Part shown: piece after piece, positions 9,582 through 22,534 of the stretch
Position numbering within the stretch: position 1 is the first letter of the stretch
Layout of the letters: each line of letters begins with the position of its first letter
Assembly: GCA_006226545.1 (NCBI GenBank)
Contig: SBGR01000010.1
Coordinates: 22,237-86,236, forward strand
Reading direction: 5' to 3'
Source: Bacteroidota bacterium
Lineage (GTDB): Bacteria; Bacteroidota; Bacteroidia; UBA8524
Length of the DNA stretch: 64,000 nt
Program-made: the position numbers and the translations under genes
The notes under the pieces: model-generated
Databases searched by the model: none
What the model was told of the DNA's origin: nothing
Seen by the model: the letters and a program-made list of their open reading frames with translations, nothing else

Positions 9582-10205
9582 TTATTTACCGCATTCTTCT
9601 TTTAAGCTATTGATGATGCTGTCAAATTTCTCCTGGGAGATATACTGTGGAGTATAGGTGCTTCCCTGGTTTTTAATTTGACTGTTGAAGGCGCGGATAT
9701 GGTTTCTAGAACCGCAGTTTAAATCAGTATAGACTTTCACTAAATCCGGATTGGTGGTTTTGGTAAGTAATCCGTCAATGTCATTGATGTCCATGTCTTC
9801 TATTGTAGCTCCTACTATTAGTGCATCCAATTCAGATAAGGCTGTTTTCTGAGCAAGGGTATAGTATAGGTCTTGCAATGTTGCGTTGCTAAATTTGCCT
9901 TCTTCTGCCAAAGCAGGATCAGCAATACCGTATTTATCCATTAAGGTTTTAATGCGCTCAAAATGGGTTTGTTCACTACCGCTAATATGTTCAAAAATCA
10001 TTAAGTCGTACTTAGACTTTGCCAGTAAATAAACATCACGAGCCAGTTTCTCTTCCTCTCTCAAAAATTTGAGATTGGCAATTTCTTCTGCGCTAAGTGT
10101 ATAGACAGGAGCGGTAGGGGTTTCTGTTTTGCTGCAGCCGGTACATGAAATCATGCAAGTGCCCACTCCGAAAAACAGAACGCTTAAAATCAGTAGCTTT
10201 TTCAT
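9582..10205 (-). CDS. DUF2202 ferritin-like exported protein (probable lipoprotein)
   Basis: REEEKLARDVY, SEQTH, IEDMDI and GSRNH di-metal-type motifs; signal peptide with Cys residues from MKKLL. Confidence 0.85.
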   Translation of the reverse strand: MKKLLILSVLFFGVGTCMISCTGCSKTETPTAPVYTLSAEEIANLKFLREEEKLARDVYLLAKSKYDLMIFEHISGSEQTHFERIKTLMDKYGIADPALAEEGKFSNATLQDLYYTLAQKTALSELDALIVGATIEDMDINDIDGLLTKTTNPDLVKVYTDLNCGSRNHIRAFNSQIKNQGSTYTPQYISQEKFDSIINSLKEECGK

Positions 10206-10281
10206 AACAGTAGTATTTAGGTTGGTGTTCAATTCCTTCTGGAATCCACTACTAAGTTCTTTATAAACCAGCTGAGAATAC

Positions 10282-10296
10282 GTGACTTAGGTTACA
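10282..10296. promoter_or_regulatory. Palindromic operator-like site upstream of the DUF2202 gene
   Basis: Minus strand reads TGTAAC-CTAA-GTCAC, a near-perfect GTAAC-N4-GTTAC dyad. Confidence 0.4.
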
Positions 10297-10337
10297 TGAG
10301 CTTGAGGTTTGTGCTTGGGGATTTAGAATTGAGGTTT

Positions 10338-10363
10338 GTAGAGGCGACGCATGCGTCGCCTCT
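10338..10363. repeat. REP-like palindrome (GTAG type), copy 1
   Basis: GTAG followed by the perfect 24-bp palindrome AGAGGCGACGCATGCGTCGCCTCT (10340-10363). Confidence 0.7.
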
Positions 10364-10403
10364 TTTGAAGGTTAGTCTAATGTAGTTTGTCTATGGCAAA
10401 CAT

Positions 10404-11438
10404 TTAATCTCCTTTCCGCTCAGCTAAGACTCGTTTTGCTGCGGCAACAGCTACTTCATGGTGAGTGCCTGGATTTGAAACGATGTTTTTCAAAAAGGCT
10501 TCATCTTTATGCTTATAACGATGGAAGAACCGATTCTCCTTTTTCTGTTTCGCCCTTAGTTCTCTTTGAGTAGGAATGGAAGAACGCAAATAGGGATAAA
10601 CAAAGACCCTCTCTCTGGGCTTTTTGCTGAGCCGCGTAGCAAGCTTTTCGGTTTCCGCACTCAAGCTACTCAAGTAATAGCACCTTGTAGCCGTTTGTAT
10701 ACGCAAGAAACTAAGCTCAAAGATTCGTTTATCCACTTTGGGTTGTCGGCACACATCGACAAATTGCATTTCAGTAAAGGGAATAGCTCTTTTTTCTTGT
10801 TCGTGCAATAGATAAAGGGTCTTGGTCTTCCAGTCGATGTTCCATTCAGCGCGTTTATCGTTGAAGTAGTACGAAAGAATTAAAATGCCCGGAGGAAGTA
10901 TGAATAGCAGAACTGCACCGGCAAACAGGAATACGAACCAAATGATATACGGATCCATGTTTTCGGAGTTAAAGAGAATAATTCCCAAGTGTGATGGGAC
11001 AATGATGAGTAAACTGCTGAACAAACCCAGGAACCCATAATTCAGTTTGGGCGTAAAGACTTGAGTTTCGGGTGAGGGAGTAATCTTATGACCTTCCTGT
11101 TTCGACAGTTTTCCGGAGTAGAAATCGGCTACCAGTTGTTGCATTTGCCGATAGGAATCAACTTTGCCCGGATCTACTTCAAAATACCAATCGTTGGATG
11201 TGTCTTGATTTCGGTAGAAAAAGCGAACTCTGTTATTTTCCTCCCTGGCTATCTCCAAATAATGCTCATCGCTATGGTAAATGGTGATGGCGGGATATTC
11301 TTCTTCTGAATTTTCTGTGCGCTTCCATTCTGCTTCCCATGGGAATGTCTCAAATACTTCTAGGAATTGCTCTGATGTGATGAGAGCATCATTTCCTAAA
11401 GAAGGGTCATGTGTTACTTTATAGCGAAGGGGTTTCAC
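10404..11438 (-). CDS. Hypothetical membrane protein with two central TM helices
   Basis: 344-aa ORF with two hydrophobic helices; no motif recognised. Confidence 0.7.
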   Translation of the reverse strand: MKPLRYKVTHDPSLGNDALITSEQFLEVFETFPWEAEWKRTENSEEEYPAITIYHSDEHYLEIAREENNRVRFFYRNQDTSNDWYFEVDPGKVDSYRQMQQLVADFYSGKLSKQEGHKITPSPETQVFTPKLNYGFLGLFSSLLIIVPSHLGIILFNSENMDPYIIWFVFLFAGAVLLFILPPGILILSYYFNDKRAEWNIDWKTKTLYLLHEQEKRAIPFTEMQFVDVCRQPKVDKRIFELSFLRIQTATRCYYLSSLSAETEKLATRLSKKPRERVFVYPYLRSSIPTQRELRAKQKKENRFFHRYKHKDEAFLKNIVSNPGTHHEVAVAAAKRVLAERKGD

Positions 11439-11486
11439 TGCTGTGAAGATAGGAATTTGAGGAATGGGGTTGAGGATTTAGGTCAT

Positions 11487-11513
11487 TAGCGGCGACGCAT
11501 GCGGCGCCACTAC
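11487..11513. repeat. REP-like palindrome, degenerate copy 2
   Basis: TAGCGGCGACGCATGCGGCGCCACTAC shares the GGCGACGCATGCG core with copy 1 and ends in CTAC (reverse complement of GTAG). Confidence 0.6.
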
Positions 11514-11642
11514 CGAAGGTTAAGCAATTTGGGTGTAGCCTTAGGTCAATACCTGACCTATTAAAGCTTGGTCTAAATGCCTTAACGTCTTGATGTCCTA
11601 ACGTCAACAATTCCAATTCTCATGTCACTACATCTATTTTAT

Positions 11643-11672
11643 TTTGAAAACTTTCATTTTCAATTACATTTG
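11643..11672 (+). promoter_or_regulatory. Promoter of the arg leader (-33 TTTG and -7 TACATTTG)
   Basis: TTTG at 11643-11646 and TACATTTG at 11665-11672, 10 nt before the leader ATG. Confidence 0.75.
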
Positions 11673-11682
11673 CAACCACAAA

Positions 11683-11742
11683 ATGAAACAAGTACTACTG
11701 AACTATAGATCACTTAGACGCAGGCCATACGCGGCAGGCTAA
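11683..11742 (+). CDS. Putative arginine-operon leader peptide MKQVLLNYRSLRRRPYAAG
   Basis: ATG 11683 to TAA 11742 with A-rich initiation context; Arg codons AGA, then AGA-CGC-AGG in tandem; lies between a promoter and a terminator ahead of the arg genes. Confidence 0.8.
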   Translation: MKQVLLNYRSLRRRPYAAG

Positions 11743-11774
11743 GGGTGTGTTCAGCAGTGAAAGAGATAAACCCG

Positions 11775-11803
11775 AAAGGCTTGCCGCATGGCAGGCCTTT
11801 TTT
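11775..11803 (+). terminator. Attenuator terminator in the arg leader
   Basis: AAAGGCTTGCC-GCAT-GGCAGGCC-TTTTTT, located upstream of the first structural gene. Confidence 0.85.
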
Positions 11804-11948
11804 GTTTTTATCGCTAAAGATTTGACTACATGAATTTAACAGACATGCTACATAGAAAAACGATACTTCGAAGTGCAAACCGACAAACGCATTTTGAACA
11901 GATTCAATCCATTCACGACATGTTAAACTATACCTAGCTGTACGCTAA

Positions 11949-12632
11949 ATGAACATATTTAAACCGAAGTTTAAAGTGCAGGTAGCCGATGAGCGGCACT
12001 TACCTTATGCACAAACCATCGTTGATGAGATGGAAGCTTCCGCCAAAGTGCGAGGCACCGGTATAGCGAAACGCAGTCCGGAATTTATCATCAAAAAAAT
12101 ACAGGAGGGCAAAGCTGTCATCGCTTTAAGCTCCTCCGGTGAATGGGCCGGATTCTGTTATATCGAATCTTGGAGCCACGGTCAATTTGTGGCAAACTCC
12201 GGCCTTATAGTCAATCCCGCCTTCAGAAAAAGCGGATTGGCCAAAGAAATCAAGGAACGCATCTTTCAACTATCACGCTCCCGTTACCCTGAGGCTAAAA
12301 TATTTGGACTCACCACCGGATTAGCCGTGATGAAGATTAATTCCGACCTGGGCTACGAACCCGTTACATACCAGGAACTCACCACCGACGAAGATTTTTG
12401 GAGCGGCTGCAAGAGCTGCGTCAACTACGATATTCTCATGGCCAAAGAGCGCAAGAACTGCCTCTGCACCGCCATGTTATACAACCCAGAAGAAAACGTA
12501 ATCAAAAAGTGGAAAGGACGAAGGCTGGATTTTTCCCGCCACTCCGACCTGTATGAACGGTATATGCGCATCAAGAAGAGTCGCTTGTTGCGCTGGATTA
12601 ATAAAGTAAAAGAGCCCAAAACACAAAAATGA
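11949..12632 (+). CDS. GNAT N-acyltransferase, putative N-acyl-glutamate synthase (ArgA function)
   Basis: VANSGLIVxPxFRxSGLA acyl-CoA motif; FWxGCxSC; first gene of the arg operon. Confidence 0.8.
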   Translation: MNIFKPKFKVQVADERHLPYAQTIVDEMEASAKVRGTGIAKRSPEFIIKKIQEGKAVIALSSSGEWAGFCYIESWSHGQFVANSGLIVNPAFRKSGLAKEIKERIFQLSRSRYPEAKIFGLTTGLAVMKINSDLGYEPVTYQELTTDEDFWSGCKSCVNYDILMAKERKNCLCTAMLYNPEENVIKKWKGRRLDFSRHSDLYERYMRIKKSRLLRWINKVKEPKTQK

Positions 12633-13843
12633 CAAAACGCGTAGTATTGGCCTATAGCGGAGGACTAGATACTTCCTATTGTGCCCTTTACCTGAGCAAG
12701 GAACTCGGCTATGAGGTCATTGCCGTAACCATCAATACCGGTGGTTTTTCAACCGAAGAATTGGAACAAATTGGCGATAGGGCCTTGAAAGCCGGCGTAG
12801 CGAAATACGAGGTACTCGAAGAAACCCAACGCTATTACGATAAAGTAGTACAATACCTTCTTTTTGGTAATGTGCTTAAAAATCAAACGTATCCACTTTC
12901 CGTAAGTGCCGAACGTATCGCTCAAGCATCTGCCTTGGCTGCCTATGCCAAAAAAGTCAATGCGGCTGCTGTAGCGCACGGGAGCACCGGAGCAGGAAAC
13001 GACCAGATTCGCTTCGATATGATTCTACAAAACCTGCTGCCGGGCATCGAATTGATCACCCCCATCCGCGATAAACAACTGAGTCGCGAGGAGGAAATCA
13101 ATTACCTGCACCAAGCCGGACTAGATTTCCCTTCGTCCAAAGCGACCTACAGCATTAACCAAGGACTTTGGGGAACTTCGGTAGGAGGCAAAGAAACACT
13201 CAACTCACGTCAAAACCTTCCTGAATCAGCTTGGCCTATTCAAGTGAGCAAGTCGGAGCCTGAAACAGTGCAAATCCGTTTTGAGAAAGGTCAGCCCGTA
13301 TCGGTAAACAATATTCGTTTTGCTCATCCAATTCAAGTGATCAAAGCCTTACACAGAATTGCATCGCCGTTTGGCATCGGCAGAGACATTCACGTGGGCG
13401 ATACGATTCTCGGAATCAAAGGCCGTGTTGGGTTTGAAGCAGCCGCGCCCCTCATCCTCATCAAAGCACACCACTTATTGGAGAAACACGTACTTACCAA
13501 ATCACAGCTCGCGTGGAAAGAGCAGATTGCACAATTTTACGGTAACAATCTACACGAAGGTTTATACCTCGATCCGGTGATGCGCAACATGGAGGCTTTC
13601 TTGGAAAGCAGCCAAGAAAAAGTGAGCGGCAATGTTTTTATCAAACTTTACCCTTACCGTTTTGAGCTGGAAGGCATTGAATCGGAACACGACCTTATGT
13701 CGTCTAAGTTTGGAACATACGGCGAAATGAACCGCGCCTGGTCTGCCGAAGACGCCAAAGGGTTTATCCGCATCTACGGAAACCAAAATACCATGTACTA
13801 TCAGATTAACAAGGAGGAGAACCCATACCATGAATACAATTAA
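12629..13843 (+). CDS. argG: Argininosuccinate synthase
   Basis: LAYSGGLDTS; AHGSTGAGNDQIRF. Confidence 0.97.
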   Translation: MTKRVVLAYSGGLDTSYCALYLSKELGYEVIAVTINTGGFSTEELEQIGDRALKAGVAKYEVLEETQRYYDKVVQYLLFGNVLKNQTYPLSVSAERIAQASALAAYAKKVNAAAVAHGSTGAGNDQIRFDMILQNLLPGIELITPIRDKQLSREEEINYLHQAGLDFPSSKATYSINQGLWGTSVGGKETLNSRQNLPESAWPIQVSKSEPETVQIRFEKGQPVSVNNIRFAHPIQVIKALHRIASPFGIGRDIHVGDTILGIKGRVGFEAAAPLILIKAHHLLEKHVLTKSQLAWKEQIAQFYGNNLHEGLYLDPVMRNMEAFLESSQEKVSGNVFIKLYPYRFELEGIESEHDLMSSKFGTYGEMNRAWSAEDAKGFIRIYGNQNTMYYQINKEENPYHEYN

Positions 13844-14810
13844 AGTAGGCATTGCCGGTGCTGCCGGATATACAGGCGGAGAATTGATACGCATCTTACT
13901 TCGTCACCCTCAGGTAGAAATTGCATTTGCACACAGCAATAGCTCAGCCGGGAAAAAATGGTATGAGGTGCACCACGATTTACTTGGAATAACAGACCGC
14001 GGATTTACTGCCGGTTTTTCGCAAGACATCGACGTGCTTTTTCTCTGTGTTGGCCACGGCGCCGCACGTAAGTTTATGGAAGAGACGCCGCTCAACTCTC
14101 ACATTAAAGTGATTGATTTGAGCACCGACTTCCGTCACCAGGCTTCCAATAACTTCGACGACCGTAACTTTGTCTATGGCCTTCCTGAGCTGAACCGCGA
14201 CGCCATCGCTAAGGCTTCCAATATCGCTAATCCGGGCTGCTTTGCTTCAGCCATCCAATTGGCTTTATTGCCTTTGGCTGCGGCAGGTAAATTAACGAGC
14301 GAAGTACATATTCAAGCCACCACAGGTTCTACCGGTGCCGGACAAAAACCTACAGCTAGCTCGCATTTCTCTTGGCGCAACAATAACCTCTCGGTATACA
14401 AAGCGCTCGATCACCAACACATGCAAGAGATTACAGAAAGCCTAGCGTCGCAACAATCGGCTTTGCCGGCCATCCATTTTATTCCGCAAAGAGGCAATTT
14501 CACCCGCGGCATCATGTCGGTGGCTCAAGTGCAATCTGATTTGTCACAACAAGAAGCGGAAGCTTTGTTTAGCGAATACTATGCAAACCATCCATTTACC
14601 CATGTTGCGCCGTTCGACCTGGATTTGAAGCAGGTGGTAAATACCAATTTCTGCTATATCCAAGTGGTGAAACAAGGCAATCAGTTGCTCATCATTTCCA
14701 TCCTCGATAACCTTTTGAAAGGGGCCTCAGGCCAAGCGGTTCAAAACATGAATCTGATGTTTGGCTTGGAAGAAAATACCGGACTCCAACTTAAAGCTTC
14801 TGCCTTCTAA
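13830..14810 (+). CDS. argC: N-acyl-gamma-glutamyl-phosphate reductase
   Basis: GAAGYTG; IANPGCF; DNLLKGASGQAVQNMN. Confidence 0.97.
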   Translation: MNTIKVGIAGAAGYTGGELIRILLRHPQVEIAFAHSNSSAGKKWYEVHHDLLGITDRGFTAGFSQDIDVLFLCVGHGAARKFMEETPLNSHIKVIDLSTDFRHQASNNFDDRNFVYGLPELNRDAIAKASNIANPGCFASAIQLALLPLAAAGKLTSEVHIQATTGSTGAGQKPTASSHFSWRNNNLSVYKALDHQHMQEITESLASQQSALPAIHFIPQRGNFTRGIMSVAQVQSDLSQQEAEALFSEYYANHPFTHVAPFDLDLKQVVNTNFCYIQVVKQGNQLLIISILDNLLKGASGQAVQNMNLMFGLEENTGLQLKASAF

Positions 14811-15949
14811 TGAAATTATTCGACGTTTATCCGCTTTACGATATCACGCCTGTGAAGGCTTCGGGCTCTCGCTTATGGGACGCTCAGGGTAAAGAATACC
14901 TCGACTTATACGGAGGTCATGCGGTAATCTCTATTGGTCATTCTCATCCGCATTACGTGCAACGCATCACCGAGCAATTGAACCAAATTGGCTTTTACAG
15001 CAATGCGGTGAAAATGCCTTTGCAGGAAGAGCTAGCGTATAAATTGGGTGAGCTTTCAGGCTATACCGATTATGCTTTATTTCTTTCCAACTCAGGCGCT
15101 GAGGCCAATGAGAATGCCTTGAAGGTGGCTTCATTTTACAACGGAAGAAAGAAGGTATTGGTGCTAAAAAACTCCTTCCACGGAAGAACATCACTTGCGG
15201 TGGCAGCTACCGATAATCCCAAAATTGTGGCCCCGGTAAACGAAGCTGAATTCATTCAGTTTATCCCCATCAACGATGAGCAAGCCTTAAGCGAAGCGAT
15301 GGATGAAACAGTTTGCGCCGTGATGCTCGAGGGCATTCAAGGTGTAGGTGGTATTCATGTGCCCAGTGTTTCTTATTTGCAAAAGGTGCGCTCTTTATGT
15401 GATCAGTTTGGCTCAGTCATGATTCTAGACGAGGTGCAATCGGGTTACGGTAGAAGCGGTTATTTCTTCGCTCACCAATACGCCGAGGTAAAACCGGATA
15501 TCATCACCGTAGCCAAAGGCATGGGTAATGGTTTTCCGGTAGCCGGCACTTTACTATCGCCTAAGTTTGAAGCGAAACACGGTATGCTAGGCACCACTTT
15601 CGGAGGTAACTACCTCGCATCCGCTGCGGCCATCGCCGTATTGGAAGTGATCAAAGAGGAAAACCTCATTCAACATTCGGCTGAACTTGGGGCCTATACC
15701 ATTGAACAACTCAAGGGAATCTCCGGTATCACGGAAGTTCGCGGCATGGGTTTGATGATTGGCATCAGTTTGCCGTATTCTTCTGCAGCCGTTCGCAAGA
15801 ACTTGTTGATGGAACACGGCATCTTTACCGGATCGGCTTCCGACCCAAATACCTTACGACTCTTACCGGCGCTCAATGTGAGCAAAGCCGATATCGATAC
15901 TTTCTTAGACGCATTAAAGAGTGAAGTGATGAAAGGGCAGGCTTCGTGA
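14810..15949 (+). CDS. argD: Acetyl/succinyl-ornithine aminotransferase
   Basis: Class III PLP aminotransferase (NSGAEANE, FHGRT, DEVQSG, AKGMG, GTTFGG) within the arg operon. Confidence 0.92.
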   Translation: MKLFDVYPLYDITPVKASGSRLWDAQGKEYLDLYGGHAVISIGHSHPHYVQRITEQLNQIGFYSNAVKMPLQEELAYKLGELSGYTDYALFLSNSGAEANENALKVASFYNGRKKVLVLKNSFHGRTSLAVAATDNPKIVAPVNEAEFIQFIPINDEQALSEAMDETVCAVMLEGIQGVGGIHVPSVSYLQKVRSLCDQFGSVMILDEVQSGYGRSGYFFAHQYAEVKPDIITVAKGMGNGFPVAGTLLSPKFEAKHGMLGTTFGGNYLASAAAIAVLEVIKEENLIQHSAELGAYTIEQLKGISGITEVRGMGLMIGISLPYSSAAVRKNLLMEHGIFTGSASDPNTLRLLPALNVSKADIDTFLDALKSEVMKGQAS

Positions 15950-16923
15950 AAAATTTCATGGGAACAGCAGATGTGAGCGATGTGCAGCAACTGCTGGATG
16001 AAGCCTTGAATCTTAAGGCCGATCCGCAATCTGCAGCTGATATTGGAGCCGGCCTGAAGTTGGGATTGGTGTTTTTAAACCCAAGCCTGCGCACCCGACT
16101 CAGCACCGAAATGGCGGCTAAAAACCTCGGCATGGACGTGCAGGTTTTGAACATGAGCTCGGATGCGTGGGCCATGGAGTTTGAAGAAGGAGCCATCATG
16201 AATGCCGACAAAGCCGAACACATCAAAGAGGCAGCCGGCGTAATCGGACGTTATTTTGATATCATCGGATTGCGGAGTTTTCCGGGTTTGAAAGACCGCG
16301 ATGCAGACGATGAAGAACGCATCTTTAAAGCGTTTGAAAAGTATACGGCAAAGCCGATGCTCAGCCTGGAAAGTGCAACTCGTCACCCGCTGCAAAGCCT
16401 CGCCGACTTGATCACCATCGCTGAACACAGCAAAAAGAAAAGACCGAAAATCGCCTTGACCTGGGCGCCTCACGTAAAGGCATTGCCTCAAGCTGTTCCT
16501 CATTCCTTTGCCGAGTGGATGTTGGCAGCCTGTCATGAACTGCATATTGTCCATCCTCCAGGACTGGAACTTGACCCATCCTTTACCGATGGGGCCATCA
16601 TCACACACAACCAAGAAGAGGCATTGGAAGATGCCGACTTCATCTACGTGAAGAACTGGTCGATGCGCGAACCTTACGGCAAAGCATATGAAGGGGGTGC
16701 AGATTGGCTCTTGACCGAAGACAAGCTGAAACAGGCGCCTGAGGCAAAGATTATGCATTGCTTGCCGGTACGTCGGAATGTGGAATTGAGCGATGAACTG
16801 CTCGACTCACCTCGTTCGCTCGTATTGGACCAGGCAGAGAATAGACTTTGGTCGGCAACGGCCGTATTACGCAGAATGATAATTGAACTCCATGAAAAAC
16901 AAGGAAGAACTGTGGGTGCTTAA
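15946..16923 (+). CDS. argF: N-succinyl/N-acetyl-ornithine carbamoyltransferase (ArgF')
   Basis: FLNPSLRT, HPLQ, TWAPHxKALPQAV and HCLPVRR motifs of the AOTCase/SOTCase subfamily. Confidence 0.92.
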   Translation: MKNFMGTADVSDVQQLLDEALNLKADPQSAADIGAGLKLGLVFLNPSLRTRLSTEMAAKNLGMDVQVLNMSSDAWAMEFEEGAIMNADKAEHIKEAAGVIGRYFDIIGLRSFPGLKDRDADDEERIFKAFEKYTAKPMLSLESATRHPLQSLADLITIAEHSKKKRPKIALTWAPHVKALPQAVPHSFAEWMLAACHELHIVHPPGLELDPSFTDGAIITHNQEEALEDADFIYVKNWSMREPYGKAYEGGADWLLTEDKLKQAPEAKIMHCLPVRRNVELSDELLDSPRSLVLDQAENRLWSATAVLRRMIIELHEKQGRTVGA

Positions 16924-17695
16924 AGTTGGCGGGAAAGTCTTGGAAGATGAAATGGCTTTGGCCACCTTTCTGGATCAACTCGCTACTTCAGGCAAACGTT
17001 TTATCTTGGTTCACGGCGGAGGCAAACATGCCAGCGCCTTGGCTGAAAAGCTTGGCATTCCGCAACAGATGGTAGATGGCAGACGCATCACTGATGAGGC
17101 CACGCTGGAGCTTGCTTTGATGAGCTATGCCGGTCTCCTCAATAAAAAGGTAGTGGCCCAATTGCAAGGTCGCGGTATCAATGCCGTTGGCTTAAGCGGT
17201 GCCGACGGAAATACGGTTCCGGCCATGAAACGCCCGGTTGGCGATATAGACTACGGCTGGGTGGGAGATCCAATCCCGGGTGAAGTCAACAAACTTTTTC
17301 TTTTAACGCTACTTCACGGAAATTTGAGTCCGGTATTCTGCGCCTTGACCCACGATAAAATGGGCCATATGCTCAATACCAATGCCGATACCATGGCGCA
17401 AACCCTGGCCATCGCGATGAGTCACCATTACCGCGTTAAACTTCTCTACCTTTTCGAAAAGAAAGGCGTACTGCGCGATCTAGACCGCGAAGACAGTTTA
17501 ATTCCGTTAATCAGACGTACAGATATTCAAGCGCTGAGCGATACGGGAGTCATATCAGAAGGCATGTTGCCCAAGTTGCAGAATGCCGCCAAAGCCGTTG
17601 AAGCCGGCGTAGAGGCTGTACTCATTGGTGCAGCCAGTCAGTTGCCTCATATTTTAAGCGACGAAGCAGAATCAGCTACCCATGTCATCGATTGA
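16892..17695 (+). CDS. argB: Acylglutamate kinase
   Basis: LKVGG; VHGGG; GRRITD; NTNAD; GMLPK. Confidence 0.95.
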   Translation: MKNKEELWVLKVGGKVLEDEMALATFLDQLATSGKRFILVHGGGKHASALAEKLGIPQQMVDGRRITDEATLELALMSYAGLLNKKVVAQLQGRGINAVGLSGADGNTVPAMKRPVGDIDYGWVGDPIPGEVNKLFLLTLLHGNLSPVFCALTHDKMGHMLNTNADTMAQTLAIAMSHHYRVKLLYLFEKKGVLRDLDREDSLIPLIRRTDIQALSDTGVISEGMLPKLQNAAKAVEAGVEAVLIGAASQLPHILSDEAESATHVID

Positions 17696-18743
17696 AACCT
17701 ATACCGAAGAATCGCTTGAGCTCTTAGCGCAACTCTTGAAAATTCCGGCTTTGTCAGGTCAAGAAGCAGCCAAAGCAGATGCGCTGGAAGCCTGGCTCCA
17801 AGAACGACAGTACGAGGTTCAGCGATTTGGGAATAACCTGGTAATGAGTCATAATCCGAATGTGGAGCTTAAGGTATTACTGCATTCGCATATTGATACG
17901 GTGAAGCCTGCATCCAGCTGGACTCAAGATCCTTATGCTGCCAGTTGGGAGAACGGAAAACTGACTGCCCTAGGTAGCAACGATGCCGGTGCTTCAGTAA
18001 TCAGTATGTTGGCTGCCTTTCGTTATTTAAAATCAATCAATTGGCCTTATGGCTTGTATTGGGTGGCCGGAGCAGAAGAAGAAAACTCCGGTTCGGGAGG
18101 TTTATCGGCTTTGCTGCCCCATTTGCCTGAATTCAGCCTAGCCATCGCCGGTGAGCCTACTTCGCTCAAAGCGGCTGTGGCAGAAAAAGGTTTGATGGTG
18201 ATAGACGGCGAAGTGAAAGGCGTGGCCGGACATGCTGCTAGAGAAGAAGGGGTGAACGCCATTTACGAGGCTTTAGCAGATATTGAATTTTTCCGCGACT
18301 ATCGTTTTGAGAAGGATTCGGAGTTTTTAGGTCCGGTAAAAATGAACCTAACCGTTGCTCAAGCAGGCGAAAAACACAATAGCATTCCGGATAGTTTTCG
18401 CTATACCGTAGACGTGCGCCTAAACGAAATGTATACCCACGAAGAAGTGCTTGAAATCGTGCAATCGCATTGTAAGGGACAACTCAGCATGCGAAGCAAT
18501 CGCTTAAAACCAAGTGCTACTCCGGTAAATCATCCGGTGCGAACAGCGCTGAGAAATATGGCGATCGAGCAATACGGTTCACCAACCTTATCAGACCAGG
18601 CTTTGATGCCCTGGCCATCGCTCAAAATGGGTCCCGGCGATTCTGCCCGCTCCCATACAGCCGATGAATTTATTCTGGACAGTGAGATAAAAGAGGCTGT
18701 GCAGACCTATATCCAACTTTTACAAAACACCTATTCGAAATGA
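17682..18743 (+). CDS. argE: M20 deacylase (ArgE-like, N-acyl-citrulline/ornithine deacylase)
   Basis: SHIDTV, GSNDAG, EEE, GEPT and SHTADE motifs; arg operon context. Confidence 0.85.
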   Translation: MSSIETYTEESLELLAQLLKIPALSGQEAAKADALEAWLQERQYEVQRFGNNLVMSHNPNVELKVLLHSHIDTVKPASSWTQDPYAASWENGKLTALGSNDAGASVISMLAAFRYLKSINWPYGLYWVAGAEEENSGSGGLSALLPHLPEFSLAIAGEPTSLKAAVAEKGLMVIDGEVKGVAGHAAREEGVNAIYEALADIEFFRDYRFEKDSEFLGPVKMNLTVAQAGEKHNSIPDSFRYTVDVRLNEMYTHEEVLEIVQSHCKGQLSMRSNRLKPSATPVNHPVRTALRNMAIEQYGSPTLSDQALMPWPSLKMGPGDSARSHTADEFILDSEIKEAVQTYIQLLQNTYSK

Positions 18744-20050
18744 AACTCTGGTCGAAAGGAAATACCGCACCGCAAGAGGTGCAGCATCGTATAGAAGAAT
18801 TTACCGCAGGCGAAGACCGACACTGGGATGCTTTTCTGGCTGTGGTAGACGTGCAAGGCAGCATCGCTCATGTGAACATGTTGGCCAAACAAGGTTTATT
18901 GAGCGAAGCAGATCACGCTATCCTCATTCCGGCTCTACAAGGTTTACTGGAGCTGGCTAAACAAGGCAAACTTCACTTGGAAGAAGGGGTGGAAGACATT
19001 CACTCGCAAGTGGAACTCATGCTGACCCGAGAACTAGGCGAGGTAGGGAAAAAGATTCACGCGGCCCGCTCCCGCAATGATCAAGTTTTAGTCGACTTGA
19101 AGCTTTACCTACGTGAAGAATTGCTTTCGCTTGAAACAGAGGTACAAGATTTCGCTAAGCAAATGTTGGCTTTGAGTGAAAAACACAAAGACGTGCTTTT
19201 GCCCGGCTATACGCATTACCAAGTAGCGATGCCTTCTTCTTTCGGGTTGTGGTTTGCCTCTTGGGCCGAATGTTTGGCTGAAGACCTGTGGCAAGTACAT
19301 GCAGCAGTTAAGCTGGTGAACAAAAATCCGCTTGGCTCGGCTGCCGGCTTTGGCTCCTCTTTTCCTATCGATAGAGAACAGACCACCCAAGAACTTGGCT
19401 TCAGCAACCTGCATTGGAATGTTTTGAATGCGCAGATGAGCAGGGGAAGAACAGAAAAATCGGTGGCTACAGCTTTGGCTGCGCTCGGATTTACCTTGGG
19501 TAGAATGAGCCAAGACATCGTTTTATACCTATCGCAAAACTTTGGTTTCCTGCGATTCCCTTCGGCTTATACCACGGGCTCTAGCATTATGCCGCACAAG
19601 AAGAATCCGGATGTATTTGAGCTGATGCGCGCGCGTTGCAACAGATTGCAGTCCTTGCCCAATGAGTTAGCGTTGATTCAAGCTAACCTCTCCACCGGTT
19701 ACCACCGCGATTTGCAAATCATGAAAGAGCACCTTTTTCCGGCATTGCAGGAGTTGAAATCGTGCTTTAACATGGCAGGCTGGATGCTTGAAGTGGTGGA
19801 AGTGAGTGAATCTATTCTGAGCGATGAGAAATACCGCTACCTCTTTACGGTGGAGGCTGTTAATCAGAAAGTATTGGAAGGCATGGCCTTTAGGGATGCT
19901 TACGTGTCTGTTGGACAAACCGTTGAAGCAGGGAAGTTTGAGTGGAATGCATCGCTAAAACATTCGCACCAAGGCAGTTTGGGAAACCTCTGCAATGGGG
20001 AGATTGAAAGGCAATTGAATGAGGTGAGCGAGGCCATTGCAAAAGCCTAA
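18740..20050 (+). CDS. argH: Argininosuccinate lyase
   Basis: RSRNDQ; PGYTH; GSSIMPHKKNPD. Confidence 0.97.
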   Translation: MKLWSKGNTAPQEVQHRIEEFTAGEDRHWDAFLAVVDVQGSIAHVNMLAKQGLLSEADHAILIPALQGLLELAKQGKLHLEEGVEDIHSQVELMLTRELGEVGKKIHAARSRNDQVLVDLKLYLREELLSLETEVQDFAKQMLALSEKHKDVLLPGYTHYQVAMPSSFGLWFASWAECLAEDLWQVHAAVKLVNKNPLGSAAGFGSSFPIDREQTTQELGFSNLHWNVLNAQMSRGRTEKSVATALAALGFTLGRMSQDIVLYLSQNFGFLRFPSAYTTGSSIMPHKKNPDVFELMRARCNRLQSLPNELALIQANLSTGYHRDLQIMKEHLFPALQELKSCFNMAGWMLEVVEVSESILSDEKYRYLFTVEAVNQKVLEGMAFRDAYVSVGQTVEAGKFEWNASLKHSHQGSLGNLCNGEIERQLNEVSEAIAKA

Positions 20051-20125
20051 GCAATTGTCATTTCGCGGTCATATTTGATTATAGGAAGTTGTAAGTTTTA
20101 CAGATTCTCTATTTTAGCTCCGTCT

Positions 20126-22534
20126 ATGAAGAGAAGCTTACTGATGTTCTGCATTTTGTTCTCCCTGTTGGGAGTGAATGCGCAGCCCATTACCCAAACC
20201 ATTCGTGGTAAAGTAGTAGATAAAGAATCGAAGTACCCGCTTACCGGGGTAACCATCAAATTATTGACTGATACCAGCGGTACACGTGGATGTGCTAGCG
20301 ATGTAGATGGCAATTTTGTGCTGGAGAATGTGCCGGTGGGTAGGCATAGTTTACAGTTCTCGTACATGGGCTATTCCACCCGGGTGCTAGACAATATCAC
20401 CGTAAGCTCAGCCAAGCAGGTGGTATTGAATGTAGACCTTGAAGAAAGCATTACCCTAGCCGAAGAGGTTATCATCAGCAATAAGAAAAATTCTTCCGAT
20501 CCGCAGAATGAGATGGCGATTATCTCGGCGCGTTCCTTTACGGTGGAAGAAACCGATCGTTTTGCGGGCAGCAGGGGAGACCCCAGCCGGATGGCCTCCA
20601 ACTATGCTGGCGTACAAGGCGCAAACGACTCAAGAAATGACATTGTGATTCGAGGCAACTCACCTGCCGGTGTTTTGTGGCGTGTAGAAGGCATCGATAT
20701 CCCTAACCCAAATCACTTTGCTATTCCGGGTACTACCGGTGGACCGGTTAACATCATCAACAATAAGATGTTGGCCAACTCCGATTTTTACACGGGCGCT
20801 TTCCCGGCCGAATTCGGTAATGCTACAGCCGGTGTCTTCGACTTGAAGTTCAGACCGGGCAATAACCAGAAATACGAAAACAGCTTTCAATTTGGCTTCT
20901 TAGGCACCGAACTGTTTTCAGAAGGACCTATCAATAAAAAGAAAGGCTCCAGCTACTTGGTTGGCTACCGCTATTCCAGCTTAGCACTATTCGATGCCTT
21001 GAAGTTTGATATCGGTACCAATGCAGTTCCGAAATACCAAGACGGCGGATTTAAACTCAATTTCCCTTTGAAAAACAATGCCAGCATATCTGTTTGGGGC
21101 ATTGGAGGCTATAGCAGCATCGATATTTTGATTTCAGAATTGTTGCCGGAAGAACGAAATATCTACGGAGAAAACGACCGCGACCAATATTTTACATCGT
21201 ATATGGGTGTGCTTGGTGCTACCTACAATAAAAGCTTCAATAGCAATACCTTTTTGAAAGTTACAGTGGCTGCCATGAACCAATCGGTTGTAGTGCACCA
21301 CGAATACCTGTTCTATTCACAGAACCGGGATACCTTGTACAAGAAAGATCCTTTGCTTCAGTATACCTTTAGCAATACAACCTACAATACACACGCGTCA
21401 GTTAATCATAAGCTCTCGAAGAAACTTACCTTGAAGGCCGGTGTCTTGTTTGATATTCAGAAATTCAATTACCACGATTCGGCACGGGCTGTTGTGCAAG
21501 ACAACCAAGGAAATTACAACCTAGACCCTTGGTCGGTGCGCTGGAATGCCGATGAATATGCCCTATTGCTTCGTCCTTATGCCCAAGTGAATTGGAAACC
21601 AACAGCACGCTTCACTGCGAACTTCGGTTTGCACAGTCAGTATTCATCGCTCAATAATGCTGTTTCTGCTATTGAACCAAGAGCCAGCATGCGCTACGCA
21701 ATCAACAGCAAAACCAATATGAGCGCAGGACTTGGTTTGCATAGCCAAATGCAGTCGCCTTATTTGTATTTCTACCAATTTGACACAGTAAACGGAACAA
21801 GCAACAGAGACATGGGCTTTACCAAAAGCTTTCACAGTGTTATTGGATTGGAACGTAGCCTAGGCAAAAGTACCCGCGTGAAGAGTGAATTGTATTTCCA
21901 ATACCTCTTCGACGTTCCGGTTAAAACGATTCCAAGCTCATTCTCTTTACTCAATACCGGAAGCGGCTTTTCTCGCTTCTTCCCGGAACAATTGGTCAAC
22001 CAAGGCAAAGGCCGCAATTACGGATTGGAACTCAGCGTGGAGCATTTCTTCTCTAAGCGTTTTTTCTTCTTGGTAACCGGATCACTCTTCGATGCTAAAT
22101 ACCAAGGCAGCGATAATGTTTGGCGCAATACCGATTTCAATGGAGGTTATGCATTGAGTGCCATCTTAACCAAAGAATGGAAAGTGGGCAAAAGCGGAGC
22201 ATTTCAAGCAGGAACAAACGTGACCCATGTAGGCGGACGCTATTATTCTCCGGCTGATACGGCCTTGAGTAACGCACGCAGTGAATTGATTGAAGTGGAT
22301 TCGCTAAAAAACACCTTACAGACGCCGGCTTATTTCCGCATGGATTTGCGCCTTTCGTACAAATGGAATAGGCCGAAGGTGAGTCACGAGTTTGCCTTAG
22401 ACATTGTGAATGTGCTGAATACGAAGAATGTTTTGGCCTTGACCTATGCGCCTGATCCGAGCAGCACCACCAACGTTCGTTTCGAATACCAACTTTCTTT
22501 ACTGCCGCTCTTCTATTACAGGCTGGATTTCTAA
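20126..22534 (+). CDS. TonB-dependent receptor with N-terminal carboxypeptidase-regulatory-like domain
   Basis: Signal peptide; IRGKVVD..G..F.L..VPVG domain; plug motif NDIVIRGNSP; C-terminal YRLDF. Confidence 0.9.
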   Translation: MKRSLLMFCILFSLLGVNAQPITQTIRGKVVDKESKYPLTGVTIKLLTDTSGTRGCASDVDGNFVLENVPVGRHSLQFSYMGYSTRVLDNITVSSAKQVVLNVDLEESITLAEEVIISNKKNSSDPQNEMAIISARSFTVEETDRFAGSRGDPSRMASNYAGVQGANDSRNDIVIRGNSPAGVLWRVEGIDIPNPNHFAIPGTTGGPVNIINNKMLANSDFYTGAFPAEFGNATAGVFDLKFRPGNNQKYENSFQFGFLGTELFSEGPINKKKGSSYLVGYRYSSLALFDALKFDIGTNAVPKYQDGGFKLNFPLKNNASISVWGIGGYSSIDILISELLPEERNIYGENDRDQYFTSYMGVLGATYNKSFNSNTFLKVTVAAMNQSVVVHHEYLFYSQNRDTLYKKDPLLQYTFSNTTYNTHASVNHKLSKKLTLKAGVLFDIQKFNYHDSARAVVQDNQGNYNLDPWSVRWNADEYALLLRPYAQVNWKPTARFTANFGLHSQYSSLNNAVSAIEPRASMRYAINSKTNMSAGLGLHSQMQSPYLYFYQFDTVNGTSNRDMGFTKSFHSVIGLERSLGKSTRVKSELYFQYLFDVPVKTIPSSFSLLNTGSGFSRFFPEQLVNQGKGRNYGLELSVEHFFSKRFFFLVTGSLFDAKYQGSDNVWRNTDFNGGYALSAILTKEWKVGKSGAFQAGTNVTHVGGRYYSPADTALSNARSELIEVDSLKNTLQTPAYFRMDLRLSYKWNRPKVSHEFALDIVNVLNTKNVLALTYAPDPSSTTNVRFEYQLSLLPLFYYRLDF

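Follow-up and report, generated by a model that had tools for sequence, protein, structure and literature searches.

A probable leader-peptide transcription attenuator upstream of an arginine biosynthesis operon in a member of the Bacteroidota

Introduction

Leader-peptide attenuators are known for the trp, his, phe, leu, thr and ilv operons of enterobacteria, whereas the textbook control of arginine biosynthesis is the repressor ArgR and not attenuation. Here we describe a leader upstream of an eight-gene arginine operon in a Bacteroidota bacterium of the lineage UBA8524 (assembly GCA_006226545.1, contig SBGR01000010.1, positions 22,237 to 86,236). The whole stretch of 64,000 nucleotides (nt) is referred to as the window, and coordinates are those of the window unless a locus or contig is named. 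The comparative evidence presented below indicates that the element probably attenuates transcription of the arginine biosynthesis operon by way of a ribosome on a leader peptide gene, and that it most likely turns the arg genes on when arginine runs short. As judged from its sequence it is an attenuator of the classical type, with a new amino-acid specificity and a new phylum context.

Related control by translated upstream open reading frames (uORFs) includes the ligand-sensing arrest peptides, namely the fungal arginine attenuator peptide (AAP, the arg-2/CPA1 uORF), TnaC and SpeFL. Leaders with Arg codons have also been reported. In the available parts of the respective reports, rbfL of S. 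aureus is a translational leader that occludes the ribosome-binding site of rbf, a biofilm regulator (PMC13009471), and orf34 of Salmonella speF controls polyamine synthesis (PMC6386406). As described in those parts, the Arg codons of both report arginine supply and are thus comparable to those of the element described here, but neither leader controls arginine biosynthesis via an intrinsic terminator. No description of an Arg leader attenuator of arginine biosynthesis, or of one in Bacteroidota, was found in the full-text literature; subscription-only surveys and supplements were outside the scope of this search, and a prior mention is possible. The main text of the survey by Naville and Gautheret 2010, the part of that work that was available, contains neither 'arginine' nor 'Bacteroid' (PMC2965389).

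Results and Discussion

Overall architecture of the leader

The elements of the leader, all on the plus strand, are the following.

11643-11646, plus strand: TTTG, the −33-like promoter motif; T4 and T5 do not vary in alignment A2, and all five sequences retain TTG/TTTG
11665-11672, plus strand: the −7 box TACATTTG, of the TAnnTTTG type; all five sequences share TAC[AT]TTTG and its distance of 10 nt to the ATG
11683-11742, plus strand: uORF1, the leader peptide gene, with the ATG at 11683, 19 codons and TAA (11740-11742), MKQVLLNYRSLRRRPYAAG
11694-11758, plus strand: P1, the 1:2 anti-antiterminator (possibly also pause) hairpin, from the RNAalifold consensus (A2 columns 55-119)
11707-11709, plus strand: Arg codon 9 (AGA), invariant
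11716-11724, plus strand: Arg codons 12-14 (AGA CGC AGG); codon 12 never varies, and Arg is found at codon 13 in 4/5 sequences and at codon 14 in 1/5
11731-11740, plus strand: segment 2, the antiterminator 5' strand GCGGCAGGCT, reaching across the final three sense codons into the first base of the stop
11774-11809, plus strand: intrinsic terminator, with segment 3 at 11778-11787, the loop at 11786-11789 and segment 4 at 11790-11797
11830-11937, plus strand: uORF2, 35 codons and TAG, MNLTDMLHRKTILRSANRQTHFEQIQSIHDMLNYT
11949-20050, plus strand: the arg operon, coding for a GNAT acyltransferase, argG, argC, argD, an acyl-ornithine carbamoyltransferase, argB, an ArgE/DapE-type deacylase and argH

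The −33-like motif is named after its counterpart in Bacteroides promoters. The promoter, uORF1, the terminator and the arg genes lie where an initial annotation, made from the letters of the window, had placed them; uORF2 had been overlooked.

The locus resembles attenuators of the trpL/hisL type in three respects. A short open reading frame (ORF) close to the promoter is enriched in codons for the amino acid of the pathway; the helices 1:2, 2:3 and 3:4 exclude one another, the stop codon lying at the border of segment 2; and the first structural gene is preceded by an intrinsic terminator. The structural features of a leader-peptide attenuator, that is the ORF, the cognate codons, the terminator, the antiterminator and the 1:2 helix, were all found. 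As in trpL, the terminator is more stable than the antiterminator. In contrast to the enterobacterial attenuators, the element is specific to arginine and unrelated in sequence; it occurs in a Bacteroidota host, with a TAnnTTTG promoter, no Shine-Dalgarno sequence and a 5' leader of few bases, and it is followed by a second conserved uORF after the terminator. A search of this region of the window against Rfam (E<=10) returned only noise at 15-18 bits (mir-55, Leu_leader, Phe_leader, snoR113). Leu_leader and Phe_leader reached 17.1 bits at best, against gathering thresholds of 50 and 55, which places the element in none of the Rfam leader families (Leu_leader, Phe_leader, His_leader, Thr_leader and Trp_leader) and not among the T-boxes. 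A search of 20 orthologous or analogous loci (61,262 bases) at the gathering thresholds returned 0 matches.

The leader peptide gene

Arginine accounts for 4 of the 19 codons of uORF1, compared with 4.3% of codons in long ORFs genome-wide. The Arg codons proposed in the initial annotation are present at 11707 and 11716-11724, but the run of three is itself not conserved, conservation being limited to Arg9 and Arg12. Five distinct sequences of the uORF1-terminator unit are available (alignment A2): the window, G001, G003 and G009 of a sister genus, and the metagenome contig L110, whose GNAT protein is 96% identical to that of the window. The frame, the start, the stop and the 19-codon length of uORF1 are kept without an indel in all five, whereas the spacer after P1 has indels of 5-6 nt among the same sequences. 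The invariant residues are limited to M1, R9 (AGA), R12 (AGA), P15, A18 and G19, of which Pro15, encoded by an invariant CCA, comes immediately 3' of the Arg codons. Variable columns are distributed over the three codon positions as 9/9/11; the distribution is flat, and the peptide itself is not conserved. Since the frame and Arg9/Arg12 are conserved while the remaining peptide drifts, uORF1 fits a codon sensor and not a functional peptide. AGA makes up 18% of the Arg codons in long ORFs of the genome, which has a single tRNA-Arg(UCU) gene; the idea that AGA serves as a rare codon was rejected on account of this intermediate frequency.

A related explanation is that uORF1 senses translation in general, or free arginine via the nascent chain, and not the charging of tRNA-Arg. 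The choice between terminator and antiterminator would then be set by a slowing of the ribosome, for example at Arg-Arg-x-Pro, or by a ligand-dependent arrest. The invariant Pro15 and the restriction of the invariant Arg codons to two would suit such a peptide, as would the existence of ligand-sensing arrest peptides elsewhere. However, the drift of the peptide outside R9, R12, P15, A18 and G19, with its flat variability, differs from what is seen in uORF2 and from what would be expected of an arrest peptide, and the feature common to 120 leaders elsewhere (see below) is an Arg-Arg pair and not a shared peptide. We consider this explanation to be improbable.

Alternative structures of the leader RNA

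Folding of the leader RNA, which had been proposed as a check in the initial annotation, gave a free energy of −43.3 kcal/mol (z = −3.6 relative to dinucleotide shuffles), with 0/200 shuffles being as stable. In the minimum-free-energy fold, most of uORF1 is enclosed in a long hairpin, which is followed by the terminator; the 1:2 pairs suggested previously are contained in this hairpin. The 5' arm of P1 (11694-11726) carries the Arg codons, and the 3' arm (11733-11758) carries segment 2 and the stop codon. The terminator hairpin (11774-11801) is built of 12 pairs, half of which are G-C, with a loop of 4; an A/T extension reaches 11801, and the T tract spans 11798-11809 (T6-G-T5). Its stem is the longest among 10 terminator-like sites in the region 10000-22000.

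The 10-base-pair (bp) duplex of segments 2 and 3 (11731-11740 with 11778-11787) has a predicted stability of −16.9 kcal/mol, compared with −19.4 kcal/mol for the terminator. In the window and in the four orthologues, the best upstream partner of the terminator 5' arm is the stretch that ends at the uORF1 stop, and the stop codon lies inside segment 2 in 5/5 sequences. A pairing as good was found in 0 of 1000 dinucleotide shuffles for the window, and in 1, 7, 8 and 2 for the orthologues. The ribosome was modelled as a stretch kept unpaired, which began 15 nt ahead of the A-site codon's first base and ended 12 nt past it. Placing this footprint on Arg9 makes an extended antiterminator (−36.2 kcal/mol) the fold of lowest energy; placing it on the stop codon gives the terminator instead.

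Conservation and covariation of the alternative helices

The order to which the window belongs is represented by 15 species genomes, of one family and three genera. The first gene of the operon was found in 22/41 related genomes. The metagenome scan yielded one new uORF1 sequence (L110) and two copies of L004; L111 and L112, which repeat the G001 sequence, and L030, which repeats that of G003, were not counted as distinct.

In the consensus of alignment A2, 91.5% of the cells of P1 and the terminator can pair, compared with 27-52% when the partners are slid. Eight pairs have changes on both sides, a number that 0/500 shuffles reach. Within P1, 7 of 22 pairs show a compensatory change, and the terminator has one compensatory and three one-sided changes. 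The antiterminator (8-10 bp) behaves in the same way: 92% of its cells pair, against 22-50% in the slid controls, and three of its pairs are compensatory. The three strands are linked at A2 columns 97 (segment 2), 144 (segment 3) and 155 (segment 4), which read A/U/A in four sequences and G/C/G in L005; through this triple change segment 3 remains complementary to both of its alternative partners. The comparison suggested in the initial annotation, for a conserved uORF and covarying 2:3 and 3:4 stems, is thus favourable in the five distinct sequences.

A covariance model (R1) built from these five sequences was searched in the 15 genomes of the family. Strong matches (114-126 bits) occur in 4/15 genomes, one per genome and always at the arg operon, and the search found no further members of the element in these genomes. 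All other matches score <=42 bits, and many of them fall on both strands at one place, which identifies the weaker matches as ordinary terminators.

These structures could in principle be read by a trans-acting factor or a small ligand, as in the case of TRAP, PyrR or a riboswitch, with the ORF being incidental. P1 is indeed a long, conserved and covarying hairpin, the peptide sequence of uORF1 is not conserved, and a translated ORF would normally have a much longer 5' leader. On the other hand, an incidental ORF would hardly keep its start, stop, length and frame free of indels in five sequences beside a spacer with indels of 5-6 nt, or retain invariant Arg9 and Arg12, or place its stop codon exactly within segment 2 in 5/5 sequences. 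Leader ORFs with Arg-Arg also occur in 120/161 upstream regions of widely differing sequence, and no Rfam family was matched. This reading is, in our estimate, very unlikely.

Promoter and dependence on read-through

On the plus strand between 9890 and 13705, the sole match to the pattern TANNTTTG is the box at 11665. The stretch 11673-13704 of the plus strand contains no such match, and thus there is none between the terminator and the operon, within the limits of a crude promoter consensus scan. The end of the −7 box is 10 nt from the ATG of uORF1, and the 5' leader is accordingly predicted to be very short, about 5-7 nt. The distance from the T tract to the start of uORF2 is ~20 nt in L003 and some 20-30 nt across L003 and L004. 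From the lack of a promoter box after the terminator and the short gap between T tract and uORF2, it follows that the arg operon depends on read-through and that, for the operon to be expressed at all, the terminator must be conditional.

A different arrangement is found in G005 (locus L002), a genome of the sister genus. The operon and uORF2 are present, uORF1 and the terminator are absent, and a TACTTTTG box lies directly upstream of uORF2. This indicates that the uORF1-terminator module and the uORF2 module are separable; G005 has either lost uORF1 and the terminator or never had them.

It could be argued from G005, where uORF2 and the operon stand alone behind their own box, that uORF1 and the terminator of the window constitute a separate small gene or short RNA, with a non-regulatory terminator, and that the arg operon is transcribed from an unrecognised downstream promoter; the crudeness of the consensus scan leaves some room for this. 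The proposal has to contend with the lack of a TANNTTTG match on the plus strand over 11673-13704, with the mere 20-30 nt that L003 and L004 offer for such a promoter between T tract and uORF2, with an antiterminator that is conserved and covarying although a plain terminator has no need of one, and with the restriction of the element to the arg operon in the R1 search. We give it little credence.

Proposed mechanism of the attenuator

Conservation, covariation, specificity and genomic context support the interpretation of the initial annotation, that the leader is an attenuator. In the proposed mechanism, transcription would begin a few bases before uORF1, and the behaviour of the ribosome on uORF1 would select the fold of the RNA. 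When arginine is sufficient, charged tRNA-Arg would be plentiful and the ribosome would reach the stop codon, where it would cover segment 2 (11731-11740), or depart and allow P1 to re-form. Segment 3 would then pair with segment 4, causing RNA polymerase to terminate at the T tract near 11800-11809. When arginine is short, the ribosome would stall with an Arg codon in its A site (codon 9 or 12, less so 13-14), holding the 5' arm of P1 open and leaving segment 2 free to pair with segment 3 once this has been transcribed. The terminator could then not form, and the polymerase would read into uORF2 and the eight arg genes. That uORF1 is translated and that ribosomes stall at its Arg codons is our inference, as are the sign and the magnitude of the response.

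Several observations weigh against this mechanism. The run of Arg codons is short, and no more than two of the leader's Arg codons are invariant; in L005 the leader has just two Arg codons, which are not adjacent, and AGA is a codon of medium frequency and not a rare one. Pairing in P1 also constrains part of the Arg12 codon. The predicted 5' leader has a length of only ~5-7 nt; in the available part of a study of F. johnsoniae, leaders of >10 nt are given for 87% of predicted transcripts (PMC6847099). A footprint on Arg12-14 leaves segment 2 uncovered, yet the equilibrium fold is the terminator; because of this, the model needs the usual kinetic (co-transcriptional) argument. The sample is one of five distinct sequences from uncultured members of two sister genera, the structures are derived from the same sequences on which they are scored, and all three compensatory changes of the antiterminator are in one lineage (L005), so that they represent few events. 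The attenuator is also dispensable in G005. Finally, the run search for 11560-12760 of the window gave no RNA run with this sequence and 10 DNA runs, of which just one contains most of the sequence words and may be the source sample.

A histidine leader of similar build in the same genome

The same genome (G000) contains a short His-rich leader, MILNQLHHHHYHSSAQAC, with a terminator, directly before hisG (Pfam HisG, 175.8 bits); the region folds with z = −5.1.

G000 contig C79, about 92590-92760 (L211:900-1060), minus strand: His leader with TACATTTG box and terminator

It shares with the arg leader the TACATTTG box, a short ORF, a hairpin in which the regulatory codons lie, and a T-tract terminator. 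It differs in having more regulatory codons (6 His in 18 codons), in the distance from the box to the ATG (20 nt compared with 10), and in the absence of a second uORF before the first gene. With a second leader constructed in this way before hisG, ribosome-mediated attenuation is plausible in this organism.

Other short ORFs precede strong terminators in G000. One, on contig C17 at ~65875 (minus strand), has a Thr-rich end (MVMMTTTPTKTKK), and one, on contig C37 at ~63140 (plus strand), ends in Trp-Trp (…DQHIWW); these may be further attenuators or merely gene ends. On contig C33, two RRR ORFs lie before terminators, with no long ORF downstream.

A second upstream ORF, uORF2

Each of the six distinct sequences from the two genera, that of G005 included, carries uORF2. 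In addition to the window copy, the copies (30-35 codons) are located as follows.

L110:582-686: uORF2
L003:1390-1485: uORF2
L005:1383-1478: uORF2
L002:2178-2279, minus strand: uORF2
L004:1420-1509, minus strand: uORF2

Its stop lies 11 nt before the first arg gene in the window, and 7-12 nt before the GNAT start across the sequences. The N-terminal half of the peptide is variable and Arg-rich, with 3-6 Arg of which one is invariant. In the C-terminal 15 residues, H-F-x3-Q-S-x2-D-M-L-N-Y-T is invariant, that is 10/15 positions in the 6 sequences, and the stop is TAG followed by C in 6/6. The variable columns of this C-terminal part fall 4/2/12 over the codon positions, which indicates selection at the level of the peptide. 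No conserved or unusually stable RNA structure was found in the uORF2 region (RNAalifold, 0 pairs; fold z = −0.3).

The peptide has no NCBIfam match, and a Pfam match to H-NS_N (16.3 bits) is below the cut-off of 24.5 and was discarded. A profile of the six peptides, searched against 1.84 billion proteins, gave one marginal match (E 6.5e-4), consisting of 9-residue stretches in a 151-aa protein, which was taken as chance. At the DNA level, a pattern for D-M-L-N-Y-T-stop was found exactly in 5/401 genomes of the class, always before the arg operon; one extra match with one mismatch was put down to chance, a reversed control pattern having given 12.

A ribosome held at the TAG of uORF2 would cover the GNAT start, and uORF2 is therefore a candidate regulatory arrest peptide or translational gate, probably contributing a further level of control, at translation, immediately ahead of the first arg gene. 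The arrangement is reminiscent of the fungal AAP, in that a ribosome held at the uORF2 stop, 7-12 nt before GNAT, would block initiation. Unlike the fungal AAP, TnaC and SpeFL, uORF2 is confined to two genera; the likeness is one of architecture. By analogy, and speculatively, the C-terminal part of the nascent uORF2 chain would hold the ribosome at TAG together with arginine or a pathway intermediate, blocking initiation on the operon, while starvation would stall ribosomes on the upstream Arg codons of uORF2 itself and so keep the start site clear. The locus would then have two ribosome sensors in tandem, uORF1 for tRNA charging and uORF2 for a free metabolite.

Arg-Arg leaders across the class Bacteroidia

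The initial annotation had suggested looking for Arg-rich uORFs upstream of GNAT-argG operons in Bacteroidota. For this purpose the 300 nt upstream of GNAT were surveyed at 182 loci, of which 172 had enough sequence and 161 were distinct. The sequences span many named genera but are interrelated, and the counts are not of independent events. Named cultured carriers of the wider Arg-Arg-stop leaders include Sediminibacterium ginsengisoli DSM 22335, Sediminibacterium roseum and Mucilaginibacter sp. SP1R1. An ATG-initiated ORF with a length of 8-70 codons and Arg-Arg among its last 8 residues is present in 120/161 distinct upstream regions across Bacteroidia. Controls gave far lower numbers: 19 for the reverse complement, 7.5 for mononucleotide shuffles, and 21 for the next-best doublet, Phe-Phe. 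Eighty of the 120 leaders end exactly in Arg-Arg-stop, and 97 of the 120 use TGA as their stop. Under a strict rule that requires a hairpin plus a T run, a canonical terminator follows the leader in only 7/120, and 4 of these 7 are of the window's own type. On sequence evidence, the Arg-Arg-stop leaders may be a widespread family of arginine leaders, absent from Rfam and working without a classical terminator.

L031-L113 and others: loci with Arg-Arg leaders, in Chitinophagales, Sphingobacteriales and others
L031, L045, L049, L050, L052, L055-L058, L067, L073, L083, L089, L091, L097, L100, L107, L113: loci with the 45-nt block described below

Within this set, 18 leaders ending in R-R-G-C/F share a nearly invariant block of 45 nt, ~90-130 nt before the GNAT start. 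The TGA stop is part of a conserved 8-bp stem (CUGAUAGG/CCUAUCAG) around a small hairpin, which covaries in L083, L100 and L113. The block looks like a structured RNA coupled to the stop codon of the leader. In a third genus of the window's family (L008-L013), a different leader of 42 codons (MKKNK…ISRR-stop) stands in place of uORF1 and uORF2, ~125-260 nt before GNAT. Short complementary stretches after its stop could form alternative hairpins, and in L010 and L012 the leader is followed by a hairpin and T5.

The observations on uORF2 and on these leaders could be combined in a more far-reaching proposal, namely that uORF2 is a bacterial counterpart of the fungal AAP and that the Arg-Arg-stop leaders are the main, undescribed and non-classical arginine control of the Bacteroidia. 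Taken jointly, these two statements are speculative and on balance doubtful, though by no means far-fetched.

The operon and its genomic setting

The intergenic region 11439-11948 is flanked by a divergent gene (10404-11438, minus strand), for which no family match was found, and by the plus-strand arginine operon, which ends with argH at 20050. The first gene of the operon (11949-12632) encodes a GNAT acyltransferase, with a Pfam Acetyltransf_1 score of 20.0 bits, just below the cut-off of 20.7, and no matching NCBIfam model; it is presumably the glutamate acyltransferase of the pathway. The protein has 227 aa and an invariant Cys-rich C-terminal part (C154, C157, C171 and C173 in alignment A1). 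Its named relatives are from Bacteroidia, mainly Chitinophagales.

The absence of argR from the window, noted in the initial annotation, extends to the whole genome (94.4% complete), in which the ArgR domains PF01316 and PF02863 were not found, while positive controls, B. thetaiotaomicron and others, were recovered. ArgR scored above the cut-off in 0/41 related genomes and in 4/121 genomes drawn evenly from the class Bacteroidia. Two of the 4 ArgR-positive genomes have argR directly before GNAT and no Arg-Arg uORF within 300 nt, and the remaining two have no GNAT in the locus. This is consistent with an anticorrelation of Arg-Arg leaders and ArgR, four genomes being too few for a test.

Implications

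The presence of ArgR in just 4/121 genomes of Bacteroidia raises the question of how the rest of the class senses arginine. The window provides the clearest case of an answer, in that its leader has every classical part and shows covariation. The survey suggests that leaders with Arg codons are the rule before GNAT-argG in Chitinophagales, Sphingobacteriales and their relatives, and with this the control of arginine biosynthesis by leaders becomes testable in cultured species. For a phylum in which genetic tools are few, the element would provide a compact arginine-responsive part. As a new candidate, uORF2 joins the regulatory peptides linked to a metabolite or to starvation, and together with the terminator-less Arg-Arg-stop leaders it could prove to be more than the known kind of attenuator.

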